Shown in pieces: positions 12,282 through 53,500 of a stretch of 64,000 bases of DNA. The notes beneath the pieces are model-generated. The model worked only from the letters and a program-made list of their open reading frames with translations, had not been told where the DNA came from and made no database searches. A program made the translations under genes and the position numbers. Positions within the stretch are counted from its first letter, which is position 1. Every line of letters begins with the position of its first letter. Origin of the DNA: Bispira polyomma (Eukaryota); assembly GCA_965649765.1 (NCBI GenBank), contig OZ287754.1, forward strand, positions 30,442,001-30,506,000, written 5' to 3'.

Positions 12282-12354
12282 ATCTATTATCCTTTGTGAT
12301 ACCATGTTGCTCAATTGCCTTCTCAAATTAAACAGTCTGGATTTGTGATCAGAC

Positions 12355-12552
12355 AGTAGTGTGCCCATAATGTGTCCATATACTACAATACACAAGTATT
12401 GCGCTATAATGTGCTCATGTACTACAATACACAAGTAGTGTGCCCATAATGTGTCCACATACTACAATACACGGGTATTGTGCTATAATGTGCTCATATA
12501 CTACAATACACAGGTAGTGTGCCCATAATGTGTCCATATACCACAATACACT
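12355..12552. repeat. ~39-bp minisatellite (gtgcccataatgtgtccatatactacaatacacaagtagt)
   Basis: About 5 tandem copies; the same unit recurs at 12850-12960 and 22470-22615. Confidence 0.9.
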
Positions 12553-12960: not shown

Positions 12961-14189
12961 ATTGTATTGTAATTGTAATTAGACTTTTATAGCAATTAAT
13001 CTCCCCTTAACGAAGGGGACTCAAAGGCGCAACAGCACAAAAGACAGTAATCCAATTTCCAATATAAAGGGACAAAAAAGGGTTGAGCACCACAGAGCGT
13101 GCCGGGGGATGATTGAGACTGAGGTGGGTATGCTTTGGTGTACAAGTGGGTTTTAAGCTGCTTTCTAAAAGAGGCTAGTGAGGGGGAAGCACGAATCACA
13201 TCAGGAAGAGCATTCCAAACAATGGGAGCATCAAAAGCAAAGCTGTGACCAAACTGTTTAACTGACTTTTGAGTAGATGGGTGGAACTTTGGAACTACAA
13301 GGAAATTACTACCACTCTCACTGCGTCTGGTATTATAGGAACTACTGTAAGATGAAATATATGGGGCAAGATACCTTGGAAATCCAGTGTGAAGAAACTT
13401 ATAAACAAGTGTAGCTGTTTTAAACACTTAACGCTGTTTAACAGGAAGTCAATGCAATTTCTTAAGAACAGGAGTTATACTGGTGTATCGACTGGTGTTT
13501 GACACAATTCTAGCTACACTATTTTGAATGCATTGTAATTTACGTAATTTAAACTTTGAGAGTCCTGAAAAGTGAATTGCAGTAATCCAGTCTACTACTG
13601 ACAAAAGCATAGGCCACAAGCATCATAATTGAGAAACCGTCTGACACATCTAAAGTCCCGAAGTTGCACAAAACAACTTTTGCAGACACTCTGTCATTTT
13701 GACCCAAAGATTATAAACTCAGTCTTGTCGGGATCAAGTTTGGGTTTACCAGTTGACATCCACTCTTTTACATCGTCAAGGCACCTCTTCAACTGTTCGA
13801 AGGCAGTGGATGTGTTCTTATGGGATAAGTGCACATAAATTTGGGTCTCATCTATCAAATGAAACTTAATACCCTTATATTTGCCAATCACCATTCTGAG
13901 AGGAGCAATGTACAATGAAAACAATAGAGGGCCCAAAACAGAACCTTGAGGAACACCAAACAAGAGTTTACAAAGATCGGACAAAGTAGAGCCTATTTTT
14001 ATCGACTGATAACGATCAGTTAAGTAGGAAGTGAACCATTTAAGAACAAAGCCCACAACTCCAACCCAAGTCTGAAGACAACTGAGAAGAGTATAATGAT
14101 CAATGGTGTCAAAGGCAGCAGAGAAGTCAAGCAATACAAGGGCAGTAGGTTAGCCTCTTGACAAAGATAGGTGAACTTCATTTTTATTG
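12961..14189 (-). mobile_element. 5'-truncated L2/CR1-group LINE (RT and C-terminal region)
   Basis: LDFSAAFDTIDH, GVPQGSVLGPLLF, KLDPDKTEF, FKTATLVYKFLH and FRKQLKTHLY motifs; short ATTAC-type tail at 12961-12980. Confidence 0.92.
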
Positions 14190-17217: not shown

Positions 17218-17739
17218 GTCTCCTGTGTCAGCTAATGCAATAATGAAATAAAAGTTTAATGACTATCTTAACTTATGTGCCAGTGAAATGTTTGTTTCAA
17301 ATGATATTGCCTTCCTTGTGCACATCTATCTACTTCAACAAACTGATTTATAATGGCCTATCGTGTATCATCTGTTCTTCGTTATGCCCAGGTCCCACAT
17401 AGAAGAGGGTGCTGTGAGCATGACAGGAAATGTTTGAGAATAATCGAGAGTTTAGATTCTACATCATTCTCCATGAAAAGGACTGGACAGTGTTGTTTTT
17501 TATGTGTCAGTGACCATATACCAAGTATTGACGATGCCAAAGCAGACTCCACAACAAGGAACAAATAATACACTTCAATGGATGGCAAGATAAGCGAGGG
17601 GTGGAGGAAGCATGGCAAATAGCCAAAAATGGTTAGGAATTCCCTACATTCAACATCCAAATTCATAAATGTGTAACCAAGGCTTGAAAAACTAGATGAG
17701 GAATGACGACATGTAGGCCAATGTCCGTATGAGGAAGCT

Positions 17740-24533: not shown

Positions 24534-25682
24534 TTATAATGGAAATCTGGAATCCTGCCAATCTCCGGCTGCCATATGGGTATGTGTAGGTGGCTCCCTC
24601 TCTATTGCACACTCTACTTCAGCCTTAAATTTCTTTTCACTATTCTTCTTATTTTGGCCTTCTGGCATGAAGCGAGCAAAATCATCCACTTTCTTATGTT
24701 TGTTATCAGATGTCACAGCAGTTTCCAGACATGTAGGAGACTGAGATTCCATTTGACTCTCTTGGAGACAAGGTGCAACAACAGCAACAGTCACCTGAAA
24801 TACGGGGAAAAACAAAGATGTACAAATCAAGTAATTTATTTCATTAAGCTTAAAGTATATAACACTGTCAAAATAATAAGCCATTCTTCCTTAATTTTTT
24901 ATAAAATATACTATTTGATACATTTAAAAAAAAAATGAACTATTCAAAAATATTTCTCTGAACAAAAGATCATTTGTTAATTTATTGAGTAATGTACGAA
25001 CAAGATCTATGTTTCTGTATGATTAATAACAAAAATGATGGTGAGACAAAAATATTCATATGTAGGAAAGGGGTTTTTAGTTAATTCGGTATATAAACCA
25101 TGATCTCCACTAAATAAAGTATTTTTCCAAACATTTGTGACATATTCAAAAACAAATATTAAGTAGTTAACAACGGGTGAACACTGTTGGAAATCTTGAG
25201 ATTGTACAAAGAAATTATAACTGTACACTTACTTGCTCATGACTTATCTTGTTCTCACTGTCTGCATTGTGGTTGTCATCGTCACTCTGCCTTTGGATCA
25301 CCTCCCCTTGACCACATTCAGACAACTCCCTTTCTTTCAAATTCATTCTCCACATCTGTCTGATGTCACGTACCAGTGAGCCCCTCTTTTTGAACACTCT
25401 TTTAGCATTCACAACCCAGTCTCTGTTTCTATCCAGTCTGTTCTGAACTGCACCCAGCTGTAGATTGACGTCACCAAGCTCCTCCTTCAAGCTAATATTC
25501 TCCTCATTCAGCATGCCAACACACTCGACGGCTGCTTTGTCAGAGTCACCAGCTCGTACTACCTTCTTTTTATCTGATTTATTTATCAACAAAGACCTAG
25601 ACTTGTACACTGCATCACGGATTAGAGCCGCCTGCGACATCTGTGAGGTTTGAGCCATAACAGTAGACAACAGTTCCATCAT
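24534..25682 (-). CDS. Two-exon coiled-coil protein of unknown function (exons 25682-25233 and 24794-24534, ~236 aa; may extend to ATG 25849 across one frameshift)
   Basis: Donor CAA|GTAAGT at 25232 and acceptor tttcag at 24795 are both phase 0. Heptad-like segment LNEENISLKEELGDVNLQLGAVQNRL. TATA-like and TGACGT motifs lie upstream. Confidence 0.6.
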
Positions 25683-25960
25683 ACCAGCACCAAGTTTCTT
25701 GTAGTCCTGAGTTTCAGACTTCTCCTGAGCTAATTCAGAGTTCAGCCGTTCAAGGCATTTTCAAACCTCAGATTTTCTAATTCATTTTTTTCCAGGCCAC
25801 CAGACGTCCTCTGACGTCCAAATCCCATCTTCATCTTGAATACATTCATGATTATTCTCAAACTAAAGTAGATATACTCAAATCTTGCTAGCAGTAATTA
25901 TGCTTGTACTTTGTAAGCCAAAAAAAAGCCAGATATGTGGTTGTCCTGTGAACCCAAAAA

Positions 25961-27048: not shown

Positions 27049-28940
27049 GTAAAATAGCCTTGTGTCTCGTAAATTCAACAGTTTTAACCTTATCTTTATG
27101 GACTTATTGTTACATTAAAAATACTGTCCTAGACGATAGTCAAAGTTGTATTTTAATCAAGACATATTAATGCACAAATTACATTGAACACATTTAATTG
27201 ATCAAGGAAATCTGAAACTATTAAATTAAGAGAACTAGCAATAAGAAATATTGGAGACATTAAATGTTAATCAAATGCAGATTTTTCTCAAAATTTATAA
27301 GCAACATATATTTGTTTGTTTTTTAATTCAACTATCTCAGCCAACATTCAATTAATTTTAAATCTTTAAAAACATCCCAAAAGTCCTACTTAAATAAGGT
27401 TTGATTGGTCCTGAAACGGCTAGGCCATTTTGGGACTAAACTCAGTACGAAAACGGCCAAGAAAAATAGGTGGCCGTTTTGAAACCGCCATAGGCCGTTT
27501 TAAAACTGCCAAGATCGGCATTCGGCCAGCTACATCTATACAGTCAAGTAATTTCAATGAAACTCTAAATTTTTTAAATCTACTCTGTTAAGTGGAACTC
27601 CTACTTAATTAATATAAGTAGTTCTAATGGACCCTTGAGACGAAGGTTAAAGCTGTTTAAATGCACTAAATATGAAGTCAAAATTTGATTTAATAACTGT
27701 AAGTACAAAAATATATAGGCTACATATATTTTTTATATCGTAAATAATAAATAGCTATCATCATACGTAATATTTTTGGTCATGTTTGAAATGTTGTCCA
27801 AAAATTTTAAATAAAACTTAAAGTCAACATATTAGTAAATATGTTGCAAACAAGAATGGTGATTAGATGTATAAACAACAGGAAAATGTATATTTGGGAG
27901 AGTGGAAATGAGCTTATAAAATCGAACATTCAGAAAATCGCAGTGTGATATAATATCAATCAATCTACATTATTTGTAAAGCTAACAATGTGTTTGACCA
28001 TTCTTTGTTAAGTCAATATATATATCCAGAATCAAACCGTTGTGCTTCTTCAGTTTTTCAATAAAAAATCCAAAATGATATTTCACATTTTATTGGCATT
28101 CTAACAAAACGAAAATAACCTCCACTCTGTCTATAACAATACCATATATTAACATTAATTGTTAAAATTCGTCAAAAAGAAGAGTATTTAGAAAATAAAT
28201 TTTGACCAGGTTTAAGTAATAGTACTACAATATTATAAAGTTGAAAGTAACAAGAAAATATAACCTTCACTCTATTAAGCCCTAAACAATACCATATATA
28301 TCTATTATTTACAAAAAAGTCACAACAAAATTTGAGAATTAGAAAAATAATAAATTTTGACCATCTGCCATCAGAATTATGGCGAAACAAGATAATACCA
28401 CTAACAACAGTTAATATCACAGATTTATATTAATACTCCATACGTTTCAAATTGAAAATGAGAGGTCTGAATAACACAGTTTTTTAGCGTATATTTTTTT
28501 TTTGTAACAACTGTATTCATTGTATAAGGTGACAAACAAATTCCCCCCCCCCCCCAAAAAAAAAAAAAATTTGATCACAAGAGCTCAATTATATAATACT
28601 CAATAAATAATAATTTAACCTGCTCTTTCGATCTGTATATAATACATATCACAGAAAAAGAAATAAGATACCTGTCATGAAAAACATCACTTAAACATTA
28701 GGCTTAGGAAATTTAGGAACTATAGATTATACAGTTAATACTATTTTTTTTCAGCAATAAAATCTATTATTATCTATAAATCGAACTATATGCACTTGGC
28801 AAAGTTATTGTTGCCATGGTTTTTTCATTTAAAAAATCTCAAATGTCACTAATATCTCAGTTTTAAATAAATCTGTCAATAGCTTAAACAATAGTCCTCC
28901 TAACTCCCAAGAAGTTGTAGATTCTTAGTAACACAGATAA

Positions 28941-30977
28941 TTAACTCGATCGGCATGGTCTCTTTCGCAGACTGACTGCTTCATTATCACAGTCATCATC
29001 AAACGCTTGGCTGTGATGCCTTTTAGTGCCAGAGACCTTGACCATGTTATTATCTTCTTTAACCAGGTTTGCATAGAATACTGAAATAGAGAAACAAAAA
29101 AACAAAGAGGTGTGAACAAAAGTTATATGTAATCTTTAAACACGCATGAACAAAAAAATCAACAAAAAATTGTTAAATTTATTTGACAAAGGTCAAAACT
29201 AATCAATTTTCAGCCTAAAATCGAATAGTAATTTTATATTCCAAATAGATGCAATTTAAAAAAAAATATCAATTATCACAATGTTTTCACAAAATATAAG
29301 AAAATTTCTGCGGCTGGCATCATTGTGATTTAAAATTATGGTAAAACATTTTAAGTTGTGTTTTAGAAGGCACTAAAACGTTCAAAGAAAGAAATCTCTG
29401 CTCATATCGTTCATGTGCTTGATTATTACAAGTGATTCTCAAAACTTGCTCCCACTTAGCTGGGCAGAGTTTTTAGAGACTGTGTTTCATTCCTGTCCTT
29501 TGGTTTGCTTGTTTGGAAACTACAAAACCAATAGACATGAAATTGGCACAGCGATGGGGTATGGGCCAAGCAGTAACACATTCAATTTTGCAGAGAATCC
29601 AGGTGGAAGGGTACATATGCTCTCTACTGAGTACCCTTCTAATTTTTGATGAATTAAAAAAGAAATGAACAATGTTACCTTGATAAGAATCTAATTCTTG
29701 TTCACTATTACTATCATCTTGATGATATTGTGAGATGATTGTTTCATCATCAACAACATGCGACTCATCAAAATCTTCATTGTAGTAACCTAAAAATTAA
29801 TAACACATCATATATTAACAGGTGAGACAAATTTATGGGATACATTGTACAATATCTTGTCTAACTAACATTTTTTGTCAAACCTAAATTTGTGTAAAAT
29901 ATTTTCACTATTTTGTTTTTGCTTATTTATAACAGCCTGGCCATATTATATAATAGTTACATGTCAAACTTGGATATATCAAACAACTATTTTGATTGAT
30001 GATATTAAAACTAAAAGTACCTTAACTAACTTAATGTTAGAAGAACATAGAAATTCTACAAATTTTCTTTGATTTAAAACATTTTCCATACCGACACTCA
30101 AGGTCAAAACAAGTTTTTTGTTTATTTTTACCTTCCCAGGGAGCCATTTTTCGCACGTTATCATAGTCAAACTCATCCACACCAACTGCCATCTCATTCC
30201 CCATGTAACCTGAAAGTAGCATGTTATTTAATTACATATACAACTAGATACTTAAATTCCTTCTTATAAACATCTTGTTCATGTTTTCACTTTCTTATAT
30301 TATAGATATCACTGAAATATTTGCAGAAAAATTACATAAAACAATTTCCACTAAAATTAAATTATACTGACTATACTATTCATGTTGGGTGTTTTCTGGC
30401 CACTGATTACTGTATAAAAATTTTTTCTCTCTAAATTACACACGTTGAGTCTGCAAACTAGTTGAATATTTCAACCTAAACTTTTTTATACTACAAATGG
30501 CATTTTTTGGCTCAGCACTACTTAAATATATTACAGTCACAGTACATTTTTAATTCTACTTTTTCACCTTAAATCTTTATTAAAATGCTGTATTTATTTC
30601 TGACAAAGGCACTATATTTGTTTACACTCACTTTCCCAGGAATCAGCAGTGTACACATGGCCCTCCTCATCCTCCCAATATTCACACAGACCATCATGCT
30701 CAATAATGTCATCATAATTGATCTCCTGAGTCGCCCCCTCCACTCTCAGACTACCCATCATCATCTCCTGGGCCTCATCCCAGGATAACACTAAACCAGT
30801 CAACACTTGGAGGAGGAAATCTCTTCTGGGCCTTACATCCACCTGACACGTGGACATCGCACAAAACAACTTCCATAAGGTGTAGGTCAGTGACTGATAC
30901 TGAATTACATCAGACTCCTTAACCTGGGACTTCCCATGGGCATGGCTGGAGGCTGTTATAAGTGTCCTATGTTCCAT
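28941..30977 (-). CDS. Four-exon gene for a 224-aa acidic protein of unknown function with a basic C-terminal NLS-like motif (exons 30977-30632, 30209-30132, 29789-29679, 29080-28941)
   Basis: All three introns are GT-AG and phase 1, with polypyrimidine tracts. The joined ORF (675 nt) is open: MEHRTLITASSHAHG...TADSWE/SYMGNEMAVG...APWE/GYYNEDFDE...DSYQ/VFYANLVKE...GTKRHHSQAFDDDCDNEAVSLRKRPCRSS*. Confidence 0.72.
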
Positions 30978-31004
30978 CAAGGCGGTGAATTTCTCAAACA
31001 GGAA

Positions 31005-31115
31005 AGACGTCACAATACTCTGTGGTGAACTCTCCATTTCAAACAATCTTTGTGACGTTAAATACATTATCAATGACGTAAGATTCGTGACGTTTTGAAA
31101 CACTGTGACGTCGTA
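31005..31115 (-). promoter_or_regulatory. Putative promoter with five TGACGT/ACGTCA motifs
   Basis: Motifs at 31007, 31053, 31074, 31088 and 31106, 30-135 bp upstream of ATG 30977. Confidence 0.55.
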
Positions 31116-31959
31116 AAAGGGTTGCTAGGTAACAAATAGCTAGTTTTGTAAGTTTGGTCAACTTGCTTTTGGTTTTTATTTGAAGCTGTGAAAACGTCGA
31201 GATTTCACTTATTTAATTGTAATAATACCATATCTTACTTTTCAATCTAATGAATAGCACTCATGATGAAGCACTCTTTAAAATAGGTGACAATAATGTA
31301 TGTGTACTATAGATGTAAGCACCATATATTCGTTTTGTTTCCCATTCTCATTTGTTTTGTGCAGAATGTACAGGGAACGTGACATACGTGGTTTCAGGGT
31401 CTTTTATGTAGTTGATATAGAATAATTATCATGTTATGACAAACAACTATACAAAATACTGTCTTGCCAGCTATATCATTGATGAAACCTTCAGTGTCAT
31501 ATTTTAGCATTTGTCTATGTGTGTGGTACCTAATGATTTGGATGTATTTTGAACATATTTTCTAGAAAGCAGGGAGTAAAAATGGTACAATGTTTAAGCT
31601 AGGATCTATTTTGTTTGTTCTGATACATGCACATTTAGCCTTGTTTTAGATTGGAATGATGCAATTCTTCGGTTATCTTAAATTTTTAAGCCAAAAGAAT
31701 TTACTGGTTCTCTTCGAATTATTTGAGTGAGCATATGTAGTGCTTGGTCAATCTTGTTACTGCTTATTTGTGCAATAGGCATTTTGGTTTTAGGGAGGCA
31801 AGTGGAAAATGTACCTATGGAGAAGCCAAAGAAAGCCATTTTTAAATATCATACTGCAAAACCGAAGACAATCAAAGGAAGCTCTTTCAAATCTGAAAAT
31901 CATTGTTACATCAAACATATAAAACACCCCTATCGCCTCATAACTCAGCTGGGAAGCTA

Positions 31960-35426: not shown

Positions 35427-35533
35427 TCAATTAGCCATAACTGCATACAGAACAAACATCATCAGACATAATGCACTCTTCATAGACACTGCTGAGTTGT
35501 CTGGTATCCAAATGCAGGCATTGTCCTCAGCAC
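35427..35533 (-). CDS. Terminal exon with GPI-anchor signal-like tail
   Basis: [35 protein letters not shown]: small residues N-S-A, a short spacer, then a hydrophobic end with no cytoplasmic tail. Confidence 0.75.
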
Positions 35534-38500
35534 CTGCAAAAACAGATAAGACCAACCTCTAAGTGACACATATGACTTTTGTCAGGTTATACATTAACTA
35601 TTTCAGGTATGTTACAATAGCACCTTAAGATAGTACTCTGCCATTTATTTTAAAACCATAGAAATTTTCAAGAAAAAATACCAAGAAATTGACAAGGACC
35701 AAAACGTAAATAAAATGTGTGCATCCCCTGCCAAATCGAAAGTTACTTAAGCATACATGTGGTATCTTTTAGATATACACTAGCCCAAAATAAGGGAAAT
35801 GTTACTTTTAGGGCCACGCTTGTATACAGACTTCTTTTCAGATTATACTATTATTACACAACTTTGCTATTGAAAAATGATTATAAAAGTAGGGGTCAGA
35901 ATGCCTGCATTTCTTTTTTATATCAATACATGTATATATATATTTTTGTGGAAAAATAAAGTGATGAAATATCTATTTACACAGTGCAAGTGTCTACAAC
36001 CATCATTTGCCTTTTATGGATTTTTGAGGTACTTACTCGGTAACCTGATATTTTTTATTTCTTACCACAATTGTATCCACCAGGAACAGCCACTTCACCA
36101 GGCTCACAGACACCAGACTTGACAATGTACACCTCTTCACCTACAGGTTGCAGTAAAAAGGTAAAGTAAGAAACGTTAAAGTAGTTTAATATTCTAGGGC
36201 AAGATTAGAAGGAGCTTTCTCAATCACCATTTTCCAATGGCTTAGGACTGTGCCACTGACACAATCAATTTCTTTTTTAATTCAATCAAAATTACCATGG
36301 TGACAATTTTCATTGTATCCTGGTCAGAAAATAACCAGCTCTAGATCCCATCAATAAGTAGGAAGAAATTACATCAGAGTTGGAGGATTAAGATGTTTGA
36401 AGAAGAATAATTGTCCCAGGAGCTCATGTACTTACTGAGTTCACTGCTATCCTCGGTGTTGTCTATAATCTCTGACATCTGTGCGTTAAAGTTCAAGTAC
36501 TCAAACCGCAGGTCTACACAGGTGTTTGGTGTTACACAACCCCTGGTTATAGACAGTCTGGGGTTAGAGGGGTGAGTATAGTCCTCAGTTGTAGTCAGAC
36601 ACATCCTCTCTTCCTGAAGTAAACACAAGGGTGAATGTAATTAGTAAAATACAGGTGTTCGGTGTTACACAACCCCTGGTTATAGACAGTCTGGGGTTAG
36701 AGGGGTGAGTATAGTCCTCAGTTGTAGTCAGACACATCCTCTCATCCTGAAGTAAACACAAGGGTGAATGTAATTAGTAAAATACAGGTGTTCGGTGTTA
36801 CACAACCCCTGGTTATAGACAGTCTGGGGTTAGAGGGGTGAGTATAGTCCTCAGTTGTAGTCAGACACATCCTCTCTTCCTGAAGTAAACACAAGGGTGA
36901 ATGTAATTAGTAAAATACAGGTGTTCGGTGTTACACAGCCCCTGGTTATAGACAGTCTGGGGTTAGAGGGGTGGGTATAGTCCTCAGTTGTAGTCGGACA
37001 CATCCTCTCTTCCTAAAGTAAGCACAAGGGTGAATGTAATTAGTAAAATACAGGTGTTCGGTGTTACACAACCCCTGGTTATAGACAGTCTAGGGTTAGA
37101 GGGGTGAGTATAGTCCTCAGTTGTAGCCAGACACATCCTCTCTTCCTGAAGTAAACACAAGGGTGAATGTAATTAGTAAAATACAGGTGTTTGGTGTTAC
37201 ATGCTTACACAGCCCCTGGTTAGGGGCAGTCAAGGGGTTACATGGGTGGTTGCAGTCCTTAGTTATAGTGAGATACATTTTCTCTCCCTGAAGTAAACAC
37301 AAGGCTAGAAATGTAATTACACTAGAACCTCTATTATCCAAACTTCCATTACCAAAATATTTAATTTTTTGAACATAGTTGAACCCAAGTTTTCATTTAT
37401 ACTGGTAAACCTCTTCTCTTATAAAGATTCTATTATCCAAACAAAGTCTTGCTCTCCCAAAATGTTCAGATATACACACGCAAAGCACAACAGCAGAATG
37501 AATTAACCAATCAAGAAGTCAAAAAAGCATGGAAGGGTCGTAAGGAAATATGTGGGGGTGAATAGGGATGGAATTAAAGGGGGTGATAAATGAGTTTAAA
37601 GAGATGGGTTTAAAGCGCTTTTCCTAAACCCAGAAAGTGTTTCAAGTGATTTAAGCTCAAATGGGACATATAACTGTAATTCAATCATTTCTATAGCGCC
37701 CTATATATTCCGTAAGGTACTTGCTCTACAAAAGATATTGCCCTACAACATAATCTAGGTTATAATCAGTCAGACAATGGTGTGTTCATGTCTTTTTATT
37801 GTATTGTATTTTGCAAGGCATCCTCTAAAGTGCAACAACAGAATCAATTAACCAATCGAGAAGTCGGAAAAACATAACCAAGGTTATAAGAAAGGATCTG
37901 GTGGTGTGTAAGGGGGAGTGGGGGGGGGACTAAAGGAGTAAGTGAGTTTGAAGAGATAGGTTTTAAGTTGTTTCTTAAACCAAGAATGTGTTTCTAGTGA
38001 TTTGAGCTTAACTAAGAGACTATTTCATAACATACGGGCATCGATTGAGAAAGCTCTAGCTTCAGCCTTTTTGGTGAGTTTAACAGATAAAACAGAAAGC
38101 CTGTATTAAGGTTACTAACTTAAGCGAAAGACAAGTAGCAAAGTAGGGGGCTAATGAGAGACAACACCTTTGAAAGTCGTGACATGGAAACAGAGTTTGA
38201 TAATGAATGGGTACGGGTGCTGATATGAAAAGTGACTCTAGATAGATAGTTTTGAATGGGCTGTACATTATTAATTTAAAACTTTTTTACATCAAATAAA
38301 AGGGTATTGCAGAAGTCAAGGCAGTTACATATAAAGGAATTAACCAAAGTAATAGCAGTATCCAGTGACAAGTGTTTTATGATTATTTTGATACCATAAA
38401 TTTGGTAGTAACAGGAGCAACATATGTTGCTGATGTGCATATCAAGTGAGAAAGCAAAGTCAATAGTAGCATTAAGGTTCTTGATTTTATTAGAAGATTT

Positions 38501-41500
38501 TATGTCTTAAGTGTTTGTTCTAACCAATGAGAATCAATTCATTTTTGCCAGGATTTAATTTTAATTTGAAATAATTCATCCAAGCCTGTACTGAGGAGAG
38601 ACAGTTTTTTAGACCACAATTTTTGTGGGCATTGTCAGAGTTAAGAGAAAATAGATTTAAGTTTGATCGCGTGTGTGTAGAGATTTACCATTACCGCTCT
38701 CCTGGAAAAACCTTATTACACCTAGTCTCCTGAAATTTACAGGAAACGTTCTTTATTACAAAAGCTTGCCTAACAGTCATCTTGGCCTCATTTTAAAAAA
38801 CAAGATGGCCACCACGGGTATTTCTTTGAAAATAATTAGGCTTTTAGCTGTGTCTGTTTCTCAGCAGTAGAAGGTTGAATCTCTTCACAGGTGATATGTT
38901 AACGAATATATATTTCCTGTATAAGCATGCAGACATTTGACCTTGAATCTCCTAACTGAAGGCCATCGACAGAGTTGCAAAGTACCCCAAGTGACCGATT
39001 TTGGCCAAACTTAAAAGTGCCTATATCTTGCCTAATATTGGTTTTAGAGGTTTGAGATCTAAAACCAACCTGTAGGAATTCATGGGCTGGTAATCTTTTT
39101 CTGTGGTCAGATTTGACCTTGGACCCATTGTGCAAGGTCAAATGGGTAGGCCAAACTTTAAGGTGCCTATATCACACTTATTATTGGTCCCACAAATTGG
39201 CAATGTGAAACCCACTTTTACCATTCAAGGCTTTAGCATAAATGCTCTATAGGAAATCATAGGCTTCTAGCTTGGGTGCTAGCTGAGGTGCTCGCTACCT
39301 AGGGTGCTTTGTTTTTCTGGTAGATACAAATATGCTAAGTCTAGTTTGAAGTTGCCAGAAGTATACAGAATGTACATCAGTATAGATCCCATATACAGCA
39401 ATAACCGAGCAGTGACAGATTTTGAAATTTGAAATTTAATAAAAGAAACATGTGTATTAAATTTGTTGTTTTTTTACTGAGAAAAAAAAGGATTAAATTA
39501 TAAAAATCCATCCAGAAATTAAAACGTTATGGTAAAAAAAACTAACACCAAAAATTTTAAGCATTATTACACAATTATATATTGAAATATACTTTATCTT
39601 TGTGTAACAGTAAATTAGTAGAAGATAATTAAGTACTTTACCTGGTTGTCACATGTCTGCCAGCAGCCATTTTGTTCACAGTCTTCCATACTCTCAGCAC
39701 CTTCACAGTTCCAGCACTGAAACATCTTATCCTCACACACACAGTCCAGGAAGTCACACGCTTGTAATAGGAAGGGTCCTGTGTGAATTAATTGACTTTA
39801 GTTAGTTTGGGTACAACATCGCTTTCAATATATCATGTGTCATATCACAGGGGCAATTAATACTCGTGAAAGAAAATCAGAGCAGCATAGTTGGACAAGG
39901 TTTTCTGCTCCGCAAAGGATCAAGCTTTAGCAACTATTGCCAATTTACTTATGTACATGTCAGGGCCAAAATTCGAACCCATGGCTGCAGGGGTTGGAGG
40001 CTAGTGTGTTACCACCACATAAACAAGTAAACACCACAAAACCTTGTCAACTGTTTACTAGTGTAAAAGAGCAATTACTGCAGCCTATAACATGAAGTTA
40101 TCAGCTGTTACTATTTGGAAAAAAAGTAATCATCACAGGACCTTGTCAACTGTTTACTATTTTCAATAAGTAATCACTACAGGATGTTTAGTTATCAAAT
40201 TTATACTATTTTAAAACAATAACCACAGACTTATACTTTAACTTATCATATTGATGGAATAAACACCCCAGTTGCATTTCAGGACAAATATACTGTAACA
40301 TCCTCTTTTCATGTTAACACAGTATACATAGTGTACAGTGACTTGGTCTCATCAAATGTAAATTAATCTCTCAGTTGTTTACCACATAATCAAACTCTTG
40401 ACTATTTTTACATGTACACTATAATCCCATTGTTACACCTAATTACCCTCTGTTTATAGTCCAGGACTTACTTCCCCTACACCTTCCCTCTCCAGTAGGT
40501 CTGATACAGTCTCTCACATACTTCTTCACGTTGTCCCCACAGTCACAACCTCCGTCCACCAGATACCAGGAGCCATAGTAGTTAGCTGACAAAATATACA
40601 CCAGAGGCCATATTATCAAATATTCTTAAAATGCAATTCTTAGTATTTTCGAAGGCACAGCCAATCAGCTTGTTTCAGTCAATCAAATTGGTTGAAGTAA
40701 AAATCTAAAATCAGGAATACTAGGGGCGATATGTATCACAGTACCCAGCTCAGTGAGAAGTCACAGATAGGTAAGCTCATGTACCCTCAAGACATAACAC
40801 AGTATGAGGGATCAAATTGGATTTACGTGTTAATAAAAGTATATATTTACTTGGTTTTTAGAATAACTACTTTTTATCTACAGTTTGGGGTCAGTGTAAA
40901 CTAGTTAAGGTGACCAGATTAAGTTTCTACCTAAATACACTAGTCGCCATTGCAATAATATTAACTTAAGGTGACCCTAAATTAAGGCGAGTTCAATTTT
41001 TAAGAATTTACATGCAATTTAAGTTAAGGTTACTAGCTCTACTGAGGTAACCTTAATTACAATTAAGCTTATGTAAAACATATAATGCATTAAAAGAGTA
41101 TAGTTACAGAACATATAAATGCAGTAAAATAAGATTAGTCACTGATGAAAGATAAGATCAGAATAATGAAAACCAGCCAAGGGGCTATATGAATCAAAGG
41201 TCTGAAATAGCTAAACTAGACACTGTTTTACTCAAATGTCCTTATCTACAGGATTAGGTTCTAGTTTATGACTAATTTCTAAATGGGGAGTCAGAAAATT
41301 GCTCCTGGATATAGATAATTTTTAACTTATACTGAATCTAGTTTCCGAGTCTAATGTAACAGTTGATATAAAGTTAGAAATGTAAATTTTACTTAAATTA
41401 CACTTACCTGGAATCTGCCACATGTTAACAAAGTAAACTGATTAAAATAAAGTGAAATACAATACAAGTTTAGATTTGTTAGATATACTAATAGGGGTTT

Positions 41501-44500
41501 ACCTCCTGAAGGAGGGCCTATGATTTCAGGTGCTTCAGTGTCCACAATGTGAAGCTGCATGTAGTCATGTAAAGCAGCATCGTAGCACTCTGGCATCTCT
41601 GCCACGTCAACTAATAGAAATACACAGAGTGAACATGTAATTGGCTGTCGTATAGGGGTCGTGATGGCCTAGTGGTTTGAAGTGCCTGCTTCTGAATCAC
41701 TGGTCTCTCACCAATGTGGGTACTAATCCTGTAATTTCTTTCATGTGGGGCAAGTTTGTTAGGTACTTTATAAAGTGCTTTAGCACTGGTTTCTTCGACC
41801 ATTGAACCAGGCCATCGTCATATGACCTAAGCTATTTCAAGCGATTTAAAACCCAACTAAATGAAAATTCTTTAATCATTGATTTACTCAAAACTCCCAT
41901 AACTTACAGTTGATCCTATTTAAGTTGAACCTCCAGGCACCAGGTGGTGGAGATTTACAGAGTTCTATTCTGAACTAGAAATTTTAAATCATGTTGGGAC
42001 CGGAAAATTGGTTCCATTTATACAGAAGTTCAACTTATACTGGCTGGTACTAGTTACAGAATCTGCTGTACATAAATTCACCCTAAATTAAGCATAGTAT
42101 TACTTACGCAATATTCATGTTACCTTATTCCAAAACACCTCAAATGTCCCCTATTATCAAATGCCTTCTTTATCTAACTCCCGCTCATCTTCCTCAATTA
42201 CTGACCCCTTTTTCTCATTTTTTAATTCATGCTTCAGGATTATTGTTTTTCTTAGGACTATTTCTTTAAATGCTCTTTTAAGGAAGATGTTGCACCTGCA
42301 AAGACCAATAATACTGTGGTCAATTGCAAGCCATCATCCCAAAAGCTGTGACTTTTAAATTAGTGACTGTACTTGGACAGTCAAAAAAAGAAAAGGGTCA
42401 ATTAGCACTATGAATATCAGATAAAGGCAGATAAATTTGAATAGGAATGCATAACAATAACTATTTAACGGGTGTTTTTTGCTACCTAGACAAGGATCGT
42501 AGGGCAGTATACAGGCTGTACAGTCAAAGTTCCCATCAGGACAAGTCAGTGAGTTGTGGTTGACACAGTCAGCTGCTTCCATACACCGAGTTCTGTAATG
42601 TCCTTCTACACCGTCAACTGACAGACTGACCTCACATACAGGCTTAAAACACAAAGAGGTTACAGGTGTACATATAATGTACAGCTAAAGAGTATAGAGT
42701 ATGCAGTATACAGGTAAGGTAGATAAACAGGAGAAACAGGTGTAAATGCAATGTATAGATACAGTATACAGGTAAGGTAGATAAACAGGAGAAACAGGTG
42801 TAAATGCAATGTACAGATACAGTATACAGGTAAGGTAGATAAACAGGAGAAACAGGTGTAAATGCAATGTACAGATACAGTATACAGGTAAGGTAGATAA
42901 ACAGGAGAAACAGGTGTAAATGCAATGTACAGATACAGTATATACAGGTAAGATGGACAAACATTAGTAAATGTAAGTGTTGGTTCATAATATGATAAAA
43001 TGTATTGACCTTTGTCACCAGGACTTTCATCACAGTTTTTGCAAGGGTAACATTGCCACCACTCTGGATAAACTTATGGATGTATAATTGATTTGGGGTA
43101 AACTGGTTGACCAAAGTTAATTGTTTTGTATAGTAGGAGGTGTATTGTAAATGATTCTGAACCTAACAGGTAACCAATGAAGTTTCTTTAAGTGGGGACT
43201 AATTTGGAGCAAAATGAGGAATCTTAGTAACTGTATATATGTTGGTAACTTTGACCAACTACCCTTAGAGTGAGGTTAAACTAGAAATAAATGTAAAATG
43301 TCAGGTGTGTTTAACATACAAAGTCAAAGCCATCACAGGACTCCAGTCTAGACCCCTCCATGGTGAGAGCATTGTAGATACATTCCCCTCTGCTGTCTAC
43401 TGCACAAGTCACATTGGACACATAGCAGTACTTCCCGGGTTCTTGTTCACAAGTGGGTTGACTTTGTAGATACACATAGGTAGGAACTACAGAAAACAAT
43501 TGCAACAAGGGTTTTTTTAGGTATAGTTTGTGTCAAACTAGAAAACAAATATCCTAGTTTCAATCTTATTGTACGATTAACCCTTTCGAACCAGAGGAAA
43601 TAATATCCTGTGAACTGCAAGAAATTGTAGGGTAACAGATTACAGATCTGTAACAGATTACAGAGTTGTCAGAGTCGTGTTACACACACAACAACATTTC
43701 TTAACAAGCATTCAGTGACTAATGAACACATATCTTTTAAGCAATATATCAAACCCACAGAAAGTAAATGATAATACAATCTCCGGGCACATTTTATAAA
43801 TGTCAAGCATAATACTGTAATAAAAATCATGAATGGAAGTAGGCGGAGCTTATGCTGGTGTGACGTGAGCAATATTGGCGTCTGCATAGTTTTTTTCTAG
43901 CGATGCAGTTGACTCGGCCCCCGAATCCTCCCCAAATCCTTCACCTGAAGTAATCGACCAAAAATTAAAGAAAATAAAAGTCCCCGGCCAAAATAATGGT
44001 TATATTCAAAATTTTGTCCCAAAACTCACTAGGGAAATTGGTGAAAATGCTGTTCTAAAGCTCGAATTCCAGAAACAACAAAACTGAGAAGCTATTTTTT
44101 ATGTTACTTCCTAAATGCTAAAAAAAAGAATAAAAACCTTGCATGTGTTGATGTAAACAGGTGGCATCTGATTTATTTAAAACTTTAAAAATAAAAAGCT
44201 TTAAGAATAAATAATTCTGTCAAAATGTATTAATTTTCCTAGAAGAAAGTGTGCAGTTTCTTCACTGAATATATACATTGTACTGAATACTGAACAAAGA
44301 TACTAGATGAGTTTAGATTTTGTAAAAACTACAGATCAATACTCACTGCACTCCTCTTGACCTGAAAACACAAAGTATACACAGTCAAAGATATATCTAT
44401 ATATATGACAACAGCTGCACAACTACATACAAATCTAAATACATGTTTATAACTCAGTCCTACCGGTCTTTACGCTGGATGTCGTAGGGTTTGGTGGTCT

Positions 44501-47500
44501 GACATATTCTACGTGCATTTGCATGAACTTTTGCATCAAATACCTTACAGGGCCATGCGTGACCTACAGGTCCTGTAAAGAAGAACATTTATACAACTGT
44601 TTTAACCATTTCGACCTTAAGAAAAAAACTCTCGCCGGGAATTGAAAGAAATTTTTCGGGTATAGGTTGCAGATAGTTATTAAAACACACACCACAGATT
44701 GCTTCTGACATTCAATAATGGCCATACATATAAGTTGTTAAACAGGGAACTTTGTAGTTCTAACAATTTCCTATTGCGAGGAACTGAAGGAAAACGATTA
44801 TAATATATTTTTGGGATGCCGACAGACATAGGTTCTAGGAGGTAATCTACACTAATTCTGGTGTAGGTATTATTTTTTATTTGAAAAAGACTTTTTTATA
44901 TTGCTTATTATATAAAGGTAGATACATGTGTTGGGTTTAAATGTTGGGTACAACTCACATTCCTCACAGTTGACACCTATACAGTCAGTTGCCGAGCAGT
45001 CACAGGTGTATGATCTAACACCATCAATACATTCTCCATCATTACATGGGGAATCAGCACAGTCATCAATACCTAGTGAAACAGAAATACATAGAATTAT
45101 ACTATCATTAAACTGTCTTTTAAGAAACCTAAGTTATGTCTTGCCAGACATGTTCCCCCATTTATTCTATGGATTATTACTGCTCAATTACTAGCACTTT
45201 TATAAACAAAAAATAACCAGCTCTGCAAAAGAAAATAATGGGATGATAAAATACAGTAATAAAAACTATGCTTTATTTGTATCTATTTTCAGTATCAGCA
45301 CAAAGGGCAGTTTATTGGTGGAGGAAAGCAGTGCAGGGTAATTGGTCAATCATTTCTGCACCGTAAACCTTCACCCTTCAGCAAGTCTACTGCATGCCGC
45401 ATGCAGTCCCACATGCATGCTGCGGATAAAAATTTAACCCCCGACAGTCTACTCCTGCCTGCAATGGTGGGAGGTATGATATGATGAATTTTTAATGTGC
45501 CTAATTGATGCCAGGCATCTGCTAATGCGCAACATCATTGACAAAGTTGTAAAAATCATGGTAACAGTGACAGTGTTACCTATACACAACTGAGGCGACA
45601 GTTCCTCAATGCCACCTATGTCACCCCAGACAATAATGAACCTTGTTGCCCGTGTGTATTGGGTGAAACGGTGTGCACTTCAGGCACACAGTACAGTTAT
45701 AAAGGATGTAATTCCTAATTTACACTAAAACATAGGAGAAGCCATAACAATGCTGTTAATGACAATATGGAAGAAGTAAAACTCTGTATTCTGAGAAATC
45801 CATTTAATACCAAAATATGATCTATTATAAATATGTGTATAGTTCACTTAATAAAGCCGTAAATGATTAGGTTTTTTGACTAAGTCTTCTCAATTGGTGA
45901 GCATCATATATCATGTGCTAGTTGGCATGTGTGTGTGGAAGATTTTATAGTTATCAAACTATGAATACATCTCTCTTGAGAACATAAGCTATTTATCCAT
46001 TAATCTTCCCACTGTGGCTCAGATGGTAACCACACATGTTCACAAATGCAACAGACCTGGGTTTTAACCCCAGAATGGGCCTCCCTGGAACAGGCAAATA
46101 CAAAGTGGCTGAGATGACCACTAAAAATAACAGTTCTCTATTATTGGGATGGTCATCCTGAAGCCCTTTTCTTTAGTTATGGGAATGACAGTTGCTGGTG
46201 CTGGTTACCATTTGTACATGGGAAATCGGCACATTCATCTGTTTCTAGAATAGAACACAATAAATGGTATGGGTGCAGGGTAATTGGTCAATCATTTCTG
46301 CACCGTAAACCTTCACCCTTCAGCAAGTCTACTGCATGCCGCATGCAGTCCCACATGCATGCTGCGGATAAAAATTTAACCCCCGACAGTCTACTCCTGC
46401 CTGCAATGGTGGGAGGTATGATATGATGAATTTTTAATGTGCCTAATTGATGCCAGGCATCTGCTAATGCGCAACATCATTGACAAAGTTGTAAAAATCA
46501 TGGTAACAGTGACAGTGTTACCTATACACAACTGAGGCGACAGTTCCTCAATGCCACCTATGTCACCCCAGACAATAATGAACCTTGTTGCCCGTGTGTA
46601 TTGGGTGAAACGGTGTGCACTTCAGGCACACAGTACAGTTATAAAGGATGTAATTCCTAATTTACACTAAAACATAGGAGAAGCCATAACAATGCTGTTA
46701 ATGACAATATGGAAGAAGTAAAACTCTGTATTCTGAGAAATCCATTTAATACCAAAATATGATCTATTATAAATATGTGTATAGTTCACTTAATAAAGCC
46801 GTAAATGATTAGGTTTTTTGACTAAGTCTTCTCAATTGGTGAGCATCATATATCATGTGCTAGTTGGCATGTGTGTGTGGAAGATTTTATAGTTATCAAA
46901 CTATGAATACATCTCTCTTGAGAACATAAGCTATTTATCCATTAATCTTCCCACTGTGGCTCAGATGGTAACCACACATGTTCACAAATGCAACAGACCT
47001 GGGTTTTAACCCCAGAATGGGCCTCCCTGGAACAGGCAAATACAAAGTGGCTGAGATGACCACTAAAAATAACAGTTCTCTATTATTGGGATGGTCATCC
47101 TGAAGCCCTTTTCTTTAGTTATGGGAATGACAGTTGCTGGTGCTGGTTACCATTTGTACATGGGAAATCGGCACATTCATCTGTTTCTAGAATAGAACAC
47201 AATAAATGGTATGGAGCAATTCTACTTTACCAGGTTTTTTTTTAATGAAATTTTAAGCACAAGAAAATATGTACTTGAAAAAGGTAAATTTAGTGTCATT
47301 TAGGTGGGATATCCCTCCAAAGAATCCTCGACATTTTAATTGTCATTTAATATTAATTTACAATGAAATCTTGCATAAACAAAAAATAAACTATCCAATT
47401 GTATTATAGCAGTGATTTACAGATTGAAGTAACTTCCACATATTAGAAATGGATCAGATTGAGGACATTGACTATACATACTGATTTCACAGAGAGCTCC

Positions 47501-50500
47501 CTCATAATCTGTTCCAGTACAGTCACAAGTGAATGTCCTAACCCCGTCTACACAGACACCATTTGTACATGGAGATTCAGCACAGTCGTCTATTTCTAAA
47601 AGACAACACAATATATAGTATTACTCCAGTGACTTGCAGATTGAAGTGGCTGATTTAGATCTTCTTTAAGAACATTGACTATACATACTGTTTTCACACA
47701 GAGTTCCCCCATAATCTGTCCCAATACAGTCACAGGTGAATGTCATAACCCCATCTACACAGGCACCATTTGTACATGGAGAATCAGCACAGTTGTCTAT
47801 TTCTGGAATATAACAAATTATATGGTATTATAGCAGTGATTTACAGATTTAAGTAGACGATTTGGATATGATTTAGGAACATTGACTATACATACTTTCT
47901 CCACACAGAGTCCCTTCATAATCTGTCCCAGTACAATCACAGGTGAATGTCCTAACTTCGTCTACACAGACACCATTTGTACACGGGAAATCAGCACAGT
48001 CATCTATTTCTGGAATATAACAAAATATATGGTAATACCTCAGTAATTTACAGAATTGAAGAAGATGATTTAGATCTTCTAAAAGAACATTGACAATACA
48101 TACTTTCTCCACACAGAGTCCCTTCATAATCTGTCCCAGTACAATCACAGGTGAATGTCCTAACTTCGTCTACACAGACACCATTTGTACACGGGGAATC
48201 AGCACAGTCATCTATTTCTGGAATATAACAAAATATATGGTAATACCTCAGGAATTTACAGAATTGAAGAAGATGATTTAGATCTTCTAAAAGAACATTG
48301 ACAATACATACTGGTTTCACACAGAGCTCCCTCATAATCTGTCCCAGTACAATCACAGGTGAATGTCCTAACTTCGTCTACACAGACACCATTTGTACAC
48401 GGGGAATCAGCACAGTCATCTATTTCTGGAATATAACAAAATATATGGTAATACCTCTGTAATTTACAGAATTGAAGAAGATGATTTAGATCTTCTAAAA
48501 GAACATTGACAATACATACTGGTTTCACACAGAGCTCCCTCATAATCTGTCCCAGTACAGTCACAGGTGAATGTCCTAACCCCATCTACACAGTCACCAT
48601 TTGTACACGGGGAATCAGCACAGTTGTCTATTTCTAGAACACAATACAATAGTTTATAACAACTAGATAACACGAGGTTAGAAATGTAATGGTAGTTGTA
48701 TTAATGAAAAATATAATAAATGAGTCTCTATACATACTTTCTTCACAGAGAGCTCCCTCATAATCTGTTCCAGTACAGTCACAAGTGAATGTCCTAACCC
48801 CGTCTACACAGACACCATTTGTACACGGGGAATCAGCACAGTCGTCTATTTCTAAAAGACAACACAATATGTAGTATTACTTCAGTGATTTACAGATTGA
48901 AGTAGTTTTTTAAGATCTTATTTAACAACATTGACTATACATACTTTCTTCACACAGTCCTCCCTCATAATCTGTCCCAGTACAGTCACAGGTGAATGTC
49001 CTAACTCCATCTACACAGACACCATTTGTACATGGAGAATCAGCACAGTCGTCTATTTCTGGGGAATAGATTTAATCAGTATATTTTGTGGTTCTCATAC
49101 AATTTATTTTATGTTAATTAAAGATATATTTGATACAGTATTTTAACCTCACAGTACTTGTTATTCTTTCATTACACTCTTCTGATAATATCTCAGAATG
49201 TCAAAAGAAGTTTGTTCAGTACCAGTACAGTAGAATCTCCATTATCTGAACTTCAATTATCCAAATGTTAGACTTTACAAAGTTATTTCCACTCTAGCGA
49301 ATTCATGTATTCTCATTGTTTTACACATAAATGTAGGTTCTATTTTATGAAACTTCTATTAGTCAAACAAAAACTTGCTTTTCACACATACAGAAAATAA
49401 TAGACTGTACTCATTCTAAACTTTAACCTGGGACTTCTGACTTTAGCTGTAAACACAACGCTGTTCCCATAATATCCAAGTATCTTCTAGTCATATATTT
49501 CTCTATATGGTACAAATATTCAGCAAGAGGGAGTGTACACATGTACACTGTTATGGCCGACCATAATTTGAACTTTGGCCTAATAATTGGGAGCTGTCAT
49601 CTTGAGCTTAGACTATTGTCCAAACCATATCTCAAAAACTATTTGTTGATGGCACTTTAGATTTGGTTAAAGATATTTATGAGGTGTTAAAAGATTTGAC
49701 ATGTCATGGCCTCATCTCATGTATCCTTCAAATTAGTATTTTAAAGGTTTTCTTCAATGGTGACACAATTCGTGTAAAATAAAATACTGTGTGAACTTTA
49801 AGGTAGAGAGATTCTTATGGCCCTATTTTTTGTATTTTTAATGCACCTTATTGATTGCGAGGCATATTCTAAAGCATAACAACAGAATCGGTTAACCAAC
49901 AGAGAAGTCCAGAATAAAAGCCAAGGTTGTAATGGAGGATGTGGGATGTACAGGGTGGGAATTAGAGGGAGGGAGGGTGCGGAGGGGTGGGGGGGAAGGG
50001 GGGGTTGGTGAGTTTGAAGAATTTTGTTTAAACTGTTATAAACTGTTCATCAAAAGTAACTTAAACTCATACTCTTTTTTGTGCAATGGGCTTTATTGGA
50101 GAATTTTACTGAAGAAAAACATTGTCTAAACTAATAATAAAACTGTAGAATAGATTTCTTTTTTTTTTACATAGGGTTTGCATAATACAAATTCACTTTA
50201 CATTACAAGTTTACATCACATTCACAATTGTCACATTTTAATTATATTTTTTGATAGTTGGTTGTAAAGTTAAGTTTTACAGCTTTGATAATGGTATACA
50301 ATACATAACTTTTATTTTTTTTAAATGAGGCTAAAGTTAAATTTTATCGTTAAATATTTTGGGATCGTGGTGAGTTTAAGTTTGAGACATTTGTTGATAG
50401 AGACCCATGAGTGTGACATTCTGTGGTCTACTCACTGTAGTTGATAAACCCATGTATTCAATTTGGTTTTAAGATATCTCCAGTAGTTTTCCATAATTAA

Positions 50501-53500
50501 TACTTGGTAGATATTGGCCGAGTTTGTAGATGCTATATTTGTGCTGTTGGTGATGACGTAACCATATACCACCATATATAGTCAATCCTCTGATAATGAA
50601 CACTTCTGAATAGTGAAAGCCTCCCTACAGTAAACTCTTTTTTCCCGGTCCTGGTTTGATACTGGTGAAAGAAGCTCTTAGTATTGAAAACCCCTTTTTA
50701 TAGTAAACAATTTGCCCTGGGTCCCATGAGCGTTCACAATATAGTGTTACTGGTATATTCAATTCTTACTTTGGTCACAGATGTCGCCGTTGTAGTCTAC
50801 CTGGGAACAGTCACACGTGTAGGAGTCGATACCGTCCCCACACACACCATTTGTACAGGGCGAACTGGCACAGTCATCTACAACAAGTCCAACATTGCAA
50901 AGTTTTCAAAGAAAACATCATACTAAATAGATTAGGATTAGAACAGTCCACAATTGCATTTAGCAAAAGTTGTAAACCAATTTCATTATTTTGTTGTATT
51001 TAGCTTCATCTCTTATAATAAATTCTGCTGAGTATCAAATAAATAACTCTTTTTTTTTAAATGGAGAGCTTACATTGCTGATTGAGAAATAATATAAGAA
51101 AGTAGAAAAAATCATACAAATGCTCATAGTCTAGAACAATTAGGAATTGTGAAAAAATAAAAAAACCATCGCTGTTATTAGAATTGTAGGCATTTCTCAA
51201 GAACACAATAGTCTGGCACATGGGGCACAGCAGCAGATGACCATATTGGACATGTAGGGCGACACAATGGCTTACAAACTCATAGAGCTAGGGTTTAATC
51301 CCAGCCTGAAAGGCCATATATACCATATTGGTTTTCCAAATTATGATGTCCGAGTGTGCCACATAACCAGGAAAAATAAGTTGAAACCTACCTGGTAAAT
51401 TCTTGTTACACAAGTCAGTGGTACAGCAGTCATAGCAAATGGCACCAACTTCATCATATCCAGTACACTGAGATTCCTGGAAAAAGACACACAATGGATT
51501 TATCAACAAAGGCCCCAAATATAGCTTTCAGGGGGCAAATATACCTGGCCGATTTTGCGTGCGAATCAATCAGCCGATGTCCGTTTCCATTATCCGAAAT
51601 GCTGTATGTTTATCTAAAAAAATCGGAGGTGACGTTGGTCAGGTGTATTCGACTTTTATATTTCTTGATATTTTGATTTTTTCGGATGACGAAAACAGAC
51701 CTTGGATGACAGATTCAGAATCAAAATCGGCCAGGTTTATTCACCCCTTAAGTTTAGTTTGGGTTTAATCTCGCTTTCACCATGATTGATCAAGACAGAC
51801 ATTTCAGTGGAGGAAGAAATCAGTAAAAGGTTGTTGGTCAAGGTTTTCATTTTTGGCTCTTTAATATTGCACAGAAAGTATTCATAACATGGTGGAGTGT
51901 ACAGGTTAAAAACACCAGTTATCTGATTTTCTATTACCTAAATATTTGATTTCATGAAATCGTCATTGTTGTCCTAAACATATCGCTATTGCACAAAAGT
52001 ACACCTACTATTATCTTTCTATGTCTCTCACAAAAGTGCACCTTCTATAATCTTGCTATGTTTCTCACAAAAGTGCACCTTCTATTATCTTGCTATGTTT
52101 CTCACAAAAGTACACCTACTATTATCTTGCTATGTTTCTCAAAAAGGTGCACCTTCTATTATCTTGCTATGTTTCTCACAAAAGTGCACTTTCTATTATC
52201 TTGCAATGTTTTTTACAAAAGTGCACCTTCTATATTATCTTGTTATGTATCTCATAAGAGTACTTGGTGTTCTAATACTCGGCACATGGGTGTTGTAATT
52301 TGGTATAACAATTTGATATAAATCCACATTAAAAACTCATACATAACCATTGCAAAATAAGTGTAATATTTCTGACATGGATATTCATAAATTTAAACTG
52401 GAATTATGTTAAAGAATTACAAAATATTCCAGATATGGAATGTTGTTTTAATTGTACTAATTTGTCATTTTAAGTACAGTTTTACTGTAAATACTTAAAA
52501 GCATCCTGACTTACATACTGCTGTTCTTCACTCTCACACACACTCTTGGCCTTACATCTCTTTGTGATGGTCTTGTAATGTTGGTACACCCTGACCTCAG
52601 TTTGACATCCACCCTAAAACACAAAATAACAGCCTATTATCCCTGCTGCACTGTGTTGAGTAGATATAGAATTGGGCCACTTTAGGGATGAACTATTATG
52701 GTGGGAGGAAGGCAAATTCTCAATACAAACAAGGCAGTTTAGCTTATTAGAGATCTTACAATGAATGTGTAATCCTAAAGTCTTCAGTAATCAAGAACTA
52801 TATCAATAATTAATGCGATTACTTACCAGTTGAGATAATATATTGAAATTACAGTCAGGCTTAAATACACATGATATATTGCATAGATTTTTGCTTCATA
52901 ATGCTCTTAGTTTTATATAACAAAAATCCTATTGTATATACATCTATACAAGCTAGTCTTTAATCTGTTTAAATGGGTACATAATAAATCCTATCACCTC
53001 ATGACTTGGTGCAGGTTTGCTACCAGCCACTTCACATACATGTTGTATGTACAGGAGTTTTCAGCACTAGTTTAAATAATCACAAGCCACATATGATTAT
53101 CTGATCACTTACAATGTCTCCTTGCTTACATGTTAGCTTTTAACCACTGCTCACATATATGTTGTATGTATAAAAGTTTTGAATCATGTTTGAATGGGCA
53201 CATGACACATATGGTCACCTGATCACTTACTGTGTCTCCTTGGTTACAGGTTTGCTCCCAGCCACTGCTTACACACATAGCTTCATTGTTAGCATTAGTA
53301 CACGCCCAGCACACTGAGGCAGGACTGCCACCTGGTGAAAGGAACAATTGATGGAACTCTCGGGTTATGGTATGAGAGGTTTACATACAATACAACTTTA
53401 AATTTTCAGTGTCTTCAGAATCACTACTGAGAGTTCTAAAGTTTCTCAGATATAGAACCATGATATTAAGTTTGTCCTAGAAATAGAGTAATTAAACAGT

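Follow-up and report, generated by a model that had tools for sequence, protein, structure and literature searches.

Where the last part of an intron is repeated in tandem together with the beginning of the following exon, the spliceosome meets several acceptors that look alike, and the question is which of them it uses and whether the spare copies do anything. Such an array lies on the minus strand of a 64,000-nt stretch of the Bispira polyomma genome (C7:30442001-30506000; hereafter the window), in front of an exon of a gene that appears to encode a surface protein. The original prediction offered two answers: either several identical acceptors are skipped by exon definition, or the array acts as a copy-number-tuned switch between an anchored protein and a secreted or NMD-targeted form.

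The gene and its repeated intron-exon boundary

The genome (1.035 Gb, 75 contigs) is unannotated, and we built the gene model by hand on the minus strand, where it stands without a 5′ end; among seven candidates for a signal-peptide exon upstream of the model, none was convincing. The 46 phase-compatible exons start 12 kb beyond the window end and run down to 35427; they hold 1725 codons, the only stop being the terminal one, and measure 39-195 nt, with introns of 93-3028 nt. Because pN/pS among nine groups of paralogous exons is 0.19 (38 replacement and 51 silent positions, by a crude count), the gene is, on this sequence evidence, under purifying selection, and it looks alive. A Pfam search with 12 exon peptides placed CBM_14 (chitin-binding) and EGF over the cut-off in two of them and nothing over the cut-off for those of the set that come from Ly6/uPAR-like, TSP1-like or last exons. 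From cysteine spacing we take several three-exon cysteine modules to be Ly6/uPAR-like, one exon to be TSP1-like, and exon 44, the exon behind the array, to form the latter half of the final Ly6/uPAR-like module.

Exon 43 (39642-39778, minus strand, phase 1 to 0) ends in the donor CAG/GTAAAG at 39642, in phase 0, and its start is more likely 39778 than the 39760 proposed earlier. Intron 43 then spans 3028 nt to 36613, where exon 44 begins (36436-36613, minus strand, 178 nt, phase 0 to 1, donor TCA/GTAAGT). The original prediction had called this exon membrane-proximal; in our model it is the third from last, followed by the 75-nt exon 45 (36066-36140, minus strand, phase 1 to 1) and the terminal coding exon 46 (35427-35533, minus strand), with a GPI-signal-like tail whose last 15 residues have a mean hydropathy of 2.09. 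A GPI signal runs from small residues through a short spacer into a hydrophobic tail, and the terminal exon ends in the same way. HMMER returned three matches, namely P0002, P0003 and P0004, of which P0002 is a true relative (E 5e-20, 71% identical to exon 44); P0003 was rejected as a homologue, being an unrelated repeat protein. Among proteins of 105-2000 residues there was no homologue candidate, the ESM Atlas gave no usable match, none of 174 pattern matches in metagenome contigs was confirmed as genomic DNA around P0002, and no paralogue of exon 44 was found elsewhere in the genome at E ≤ 1.

Other parts of the gene carry repeats of their own. Eight complete 114-nt EGF exons (phase 1-1) with 93-104-nt introns form a 208-bp tandem array at 47465-49062, a whole-exon duplication in which the frame is kept. 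Orphan EGF exon pieces at 47186 and 46244 (a 942-bp duplication), 59932-59874 and 54512 comprise two acceptors with the first 38 nt only, one 3′ half with its donor and one short donor copy. At 42704-42963, a 58-bp repeat of 4.4 copies, pyrimidine-rich and AG-free on the gene strand, ends some 60 nt short of the weak AAG acceptor at 42642. Downstream of the gene, exon-like acidic frames on the minus strand at 28940-31124 and 24600-25760 may represent one or two further genes. RING/B-box TRIM-like frames of 341 and 212 aa, with two relatives at 37-39% identity and only remote named matches, occupy 15672-17262 on the minus strand, and the elements at 6771-7814, 13694-14149, 18317-20553 and 10925-12461 are presumably broken LINE endonuclease/reverse transcriptase copies and a transposase-like remnant.

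The array itself occupies 36518-37319 on the minus strand, where Tandem Repeats Finder gives a period of 133, 5.9 copies, 92% matches and a score of 1309. Each 133-bp unit joins the last 37 nt of intron 43, with TACTAAT (A at -28), a pyrimidine tract and YAG, to the first 96 nt of exon 44; the unit length and the splice signals had been recognized correctly, and the exon share, put at about 94 nt, needed a small correction. The first exon-like base after each AG lies at 37287, 37145, 37012, 36879, 36746 and 36613, giving spacings of 142, 133, 133, 133 and 133 bp. Unit 2 (37050-37182, acceptor 37145) would yield a 710-nt exon with a stop, and unit 3 (36917-37049, acceptor 37012, a TAG), the most diverged of the young units, a 577-nt exon with a stop. 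Unit 4 (36784-36916, acceptor 36879) would open a 444-nt exon whose product ends in a hydrophobic tail, and unit 5 (36651-36783, acceptor 36746), which carries an A>T change at 36744, is the nearest competitor with a 311-nt exon. The sixth and last unit includes the 3′ splice region of the authentic exon (36614-36650; branch-like TACTAAT at 36646-36640, pyrimidine tract, CAG), and it alone continues to the only GTAAGT donor, behind 36436. Among units 2-6 the differences amount to 1-7 nt of 133, and among units 4, 5 and 6 to just 1-2 nt; of the seven changes in units 2-6, four would be synonymous in the frame of the exon (p = 0.10, transitions allowed for).

Unit 1 (37183-37319, acceptor 37287), the outermost, is different. 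In its exon-derived part, 18 of 96 aligned bases are mismatched and there are two insertions, of 1 and 8 nt; it has a +1 shift and has lost a conserved cysteine. Its branch motif is cut by a repeat end, leaving the branch region damaged, and an extra AG lies 17 nt before the acceptor; a truncated high-copy repeat with inverted ends (MITE-like, 37318-37472) abuts this motif at a TA. YAG is kept in all six units and TACTAAT in five. Next to its AG, unit 1 retains 28 of 30 intron bases, against 19% divergence in the exon part (Fisher p = 0.16). Judged by these sequence differences, unit 1 is the oldest spare copy and has decayed. The spacing and the unit comparison thus agree with the predicted order of four near-perfect acceptors and one diverged one before the only copy with a GTAAGT. 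In the simplest history, one old duplication of 37 nt of intron and 96 nt of exon would have produced two acceptors, the upstream copy, freed from reading-frame constraint, would have decayed, and slippage or unequal crossing-over would later have multiplied the downstream unit to five.

Structurally, the array belongs to the mirage minisatellites, a kind of repeat described before in amphioxus and reportedly named in a paper by Canestro et al. in 2002. Four features place it there: a head-to-tail unit that spans the boundary, one copy that continues as the full exon, retained splice signals and homogenised inner units.

Read evidence for the array

The array is real. Three sequencing runs contain this stretch (two samples, S1 and S2, of one study), and each yields a 163-nt contig whose first and last 30 bases are identical, forming a closed loop of 133 31-mers. 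In S1 the depth of this contig is 59.4 and 62.6 against 19.4 and 20.4 in the flank, or 3.06 and 3.07 times single-copy, where the window predicts a ratio of 3.24; in S2 it is 277.6 against 113.6 or 95.9, that is, 2.4-2.9 times, contig depth being no copy number. S1 may be the assembly's own sample, yet read depth is independent of the assembler. The idea that the assembler expanded one single unit deserves virtually no credence, even though units 4, 5 and 6 are nearly the same, no run contig spans the array, the diverged outer units are uncovered, and 36925-37262 is without cover in all three runs. A self-closing 133-word contig at about three times single-copy depth in every run, private changes in the units and the 19% divergence of unit 1 all stand against it, and the tandem array claimed at the outset is no assembler artefact. 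In run X3, 36348-36761 has next to no contig cover, which proves nothing either way.

Choice among six acceptors

We scored splice sites with matrices made from 23 distinct donors and 37 acceptors, all of this one gene. At 7.5-9.5 bits, the six array acceptors are too similar in strength for any of them to stand out. Among the donors, the one at 36436 reaches 10.4 bits, the best GT in units 2-5, which precedes the next AG by 37 nt, scores 2.4, and unit 1 has two weak donors of 3.8 and 1.8 bits, where the weakest real donors score 1.2 and 1.5. An exon opened at 36613 is 178 nt long versus 311-852 nt from the upstream acceptors; all 46 modelled exons fall within 39-195 nt. Exon definition has a size limit near 300 nt in vertebrates. 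In addition, P0002 aligns over the whole of exon 44, past the repeated part as well. Within the shared N-terminal 15 residues, units 1 and 6 differ at six; of these, P0002 agrees with unit 6 at five and with unit 1 at none. Together with the analogous arrays discussed below, these sequence relations make it likely that the five upstream acceptors are skipped, that the mRNA uses only 36613, and that the mirage minisatellite is a by-product of repeat instability. Some details point the other way, none of them significantly: the well-kept intron bases beside the AG of unit 1, the weak donors of that unit, and the share of silent changes among the young units.

Such skipping would fit exon definition. 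With an upstream intron of about 3 kb, splice sites would tend to be paired over the exon, and U1 bound at 36436, the one strong donor, would bring U2AF/U2 to the acceptor closest to it, giving the 178-nt exon. NMD clears rare splicing errors and acts where a stop precedes a downstream junction by more than about 50 nt. If an upstream AG were used now and then, the resulting stop would precede the next junction by at least 152 nt, and NMD would likely remove the transcript. An earlier study states that U1 at a donor assists the recruitment of U2 to the acceptor at the other end of the exon (PMC9849329).

The same equality of strength could let the upstream acceptors, mainly 36746, take a real share of splicing as an unselected leak, with NMD of the products and slightly less anchored protein from longer alleles, and with no regulatory role. 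We consider this unlikely. The acceptors are indeed equal in sequence as well as strength, each has its own branch-like motif, and the 311-nt exon from 36746 is close to the vertebrate size limit. Human repeats at exon-intron boundaries often go with alternative transcripts (66% of intron modifications; PMC2812944). However, three arrays place 19 spare acceptors in series in one intact gene, where leaks would multiply, unit 1 still keeps its spare AG despite 19% divergence, and amphioxus mirages reportedly splice normally (PMC3087553, PMC3902484).

The units might instead be spliced as small exons, either 78 nt long with 55-nt introns or as an 87-nt exon in unit 1, and intron or exon gain in progress would then be adding in-frame modules to the last domain. 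The stretch from AG to TGT/GTAACA measures 78 nt, keeps phase 0 at both ends and is free of stops in every young unit; in unit 1, CAT/GTAACA lies in frame at 87 nt, and one of the weak donors of this unit would close an open, in-frame 87-nt exon. Precedents are potato RdRp (PMC4974935) and a model drawn for globin mirages (PMC3087553). Yet the duplicated exon part holds no usable donor of the kind that intron gain calls for: TGT/GTAACA in units 2-5 scores -1.2 bits, under all 23 real donors and at a level that 54% of 106 intron GTs reach, and unit 1 offers weak candidates only. The authentic exon holds TGT/GTAACA too, and P0002 conserves the exon past it; an intron of 55 nt is well below the shortest modelled one (93 nt), and unit 1 comes with its frame shift, missing cysteine and damaged branch region. 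Gain in progress is therefore, in our judgement, highly improbable.

What use of the upstream acceptors would produce bears on the proposed switch. Spliced from the phase-0 donor at 39642, all five upstream AGs lead to a stop after 45-56 codons, including AG 37012, which lies 399 nt upstream of 36613 and in frame with it. These stops fall 152-684 nt before the 36436 donor, versus the roughly 50 nt of the NMD rule. The expectation that an upstream AG stops before the GPI signal thus held for all five, with one refinement: in the AG 36879 product the stop comes earlier, owing to the A>T at 36744 in unit 5, which creates a TGA right behind an intron-derived hydrophobic stretch. The last 15 residues of this product have a mean hydropathy of 1.91, against 2.09 for the real tail. 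A uniform secreted form, as first envisaged, is accordingly not what the array would yield, as use of AG 36879 would leave a hydrophobic tail. This GPI-signal-like end is probably due to chance.

These products could nevertheless be read as selected outcomes. In one version, array length tunes the balance between the GPI-anchored protein and an anchorless, differently anchored or NMD-targeted form, and every upstream AG does take the terminal anchor exon out of the reading frame. The hydrophobic end of the AG 36879 product would suit a differently anchored form, poly(A)-like hexamers occur in the next introns at 36281, 36190 and 36059, and the lower depth of the loop contig in S2 (2.4-2.9 times, against 3.1 in S1) may mean another array length. 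Against this stand the position of the stops, 152-684 nt before a junction, the dependence of the hydrophobic end on one base change in one unit, and the fact that poly(A)-like hexamers are common in AT-rich introns. We hold such a selected copy-number switch to be extremely improbable. A related proposal makes array length a heritable dial, on which longer arrays would bring more upstream splicing and less anchored protein or, through AG 36879, a new form with a hydrophobic anchor; three further exons of the gene, with 10, 4 and 0 spare acceptors, would then form a dose response. We rate this as very unlikely.

Recurrence and relation to known mirages

We probed the 91 modelled junctions against 124 kb and found 26 copies off modelled junctions, 21 of them acceptors and 5 donors. 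A second acceptor mirage, with a 79-bp unit unrelated to the 133-bp one, lies at C7:30515959-30516814 and C7:30510066-30510450. Its spare acceptors number 10 before exon 3, 4 before exon 9 and 0 before exon 22 (window 56367), and each leads to a stop within 2-18 codons. Exons 3, 9 and 22 are paralogous, 97.5-100% identical, and encode one peptide. On the donor side, an exon end with GTAAGT is repeated 118 nt downstream (154 nt for a third copy) behind three paralogous exons (window 61580-61824 and 53032-53278; C7:30506859), and the two copies in the window would meet a stop if used. The periods 133, 118, 154 and 79 all leave a remainder of 1 on division by 3, but they are too few to interpret. 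Three of seven independent arrays cover one junction where 0.92 is expected (P = 0.046), a post hoc figure under our own grouping, from which we claim no preference.

The structure is not confined to the surface-protein gene. In PAICS, which lies on a different chromosome (contig C1), a 45-bp unit repeated 12 times (C1:105144452-105144987) and a 128-bp unit repeated 1.8 times (C1:105146563-105146795) form acceptor arrays in which only the last copy enters the conserved exon, and in a third array, of two 123-bp copies (C1:105140369-105140612), an AG is followed by exon-like sequence. Because it recurs both within the surface-protein gene and in PAICS, the structure is, as far as these sequences indicate, common in this genome, a housekeeping enzyme included. 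This recurrence also speaks against the copy-number switch: a similar structure stands before the third and ninth exons, where truncation removes nearly the whole protein, and before exons of PAICS, and whether 10, 4 or 0 spare copies precede them, the three paralogous exons specify one identical peptide.

Similar arrays have been described in amphioxus. Mirages occur there in Adh3, in the globins BflGb6 and BflGb9, in troponin C and in PGBD5, according to two reports (PMC3087553, PMC3902484). In BflGb6, units of 150-160 bp join an intron end to an exon start, in six and three copies on two haplotypes; they are 81-100% identical, the boundary units lie outside homogenisation, and splicing is normal by RT-PCR (PMC3087553). 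The Adh and TnC mirages are reported to give no aberrant mRNA (PMC3902484). The array described here shares with these mirages its six units of intron 3′ end and exon 5′ start, a unit size near that of BflGb6, homogenised inner units with a boundary unit that is the most diverged, intact AGs, and the presence of acceptor and donor versions in one genome. It differs in the gene that it affects and in the nature of the evidence, since normal splicing by RT-PCR and haplotype length variation are amphioxus data and the present array is known from DNA. Also unlike in amphioxus, one gene here bears two independent acceptor arrays as well as a donor duplication.

Repeats across splice boundaries have been described in other organisms as well. 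In human CBS, the 844ins68 allele duplicates the junction of intron 7 and exon 8, and the distal site is strongly favoured, giving normal mRNA (PMC2630376); that allele has one extra 68-bp copy, whereas the present array has six units. The 37-bp VNTR in intron 7 of human F7 is likewise a minisatellite across a splice boundary, but on the donor side; its identical extra donor sites are described as functional but silent, and its authors invoke oriented scanning, not exon definition (PMC1557585). In potato RdRp, an intron was gained by tandem duplication with a strong cryptic GTAAG donor, as RNA reads showed (PMC4974935). The present array resembles it in being a boundary duplication in which the branch site, the pyrimidine tract and the AG are all duplicated, but its young units are without such a donor.

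Of the two original alternatives, then, the skipping of identical acceptors is likely by analogy with amphioxus mirages and CBS 844ins68. The copy-number-tuned switch is without support, because the structure is a known by-product, recurs in this gene and in PAICS, and has an oldest copy that has decayed. We found no regulatory role for a mirage in the literature searched, which leaves most subscription papers outside. Were copy number to tune the anchored form, mirages would have a functional role that is reported in none of the literature consulted. For mirages, the same literature observes the choice of the last acceptor among identical ones but does not dissect it.

The array is thus one more mirage, of a repeat type that is known and apparently tolerated. 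Mirage arrays can mislead gene prediction and the mapping of short-read junctions. The gene offers an internal dose series, near-identical exons being preceded by 10, 4 and 0 spare acceptors and exon 44 by 5, and has modest value as a natural test.
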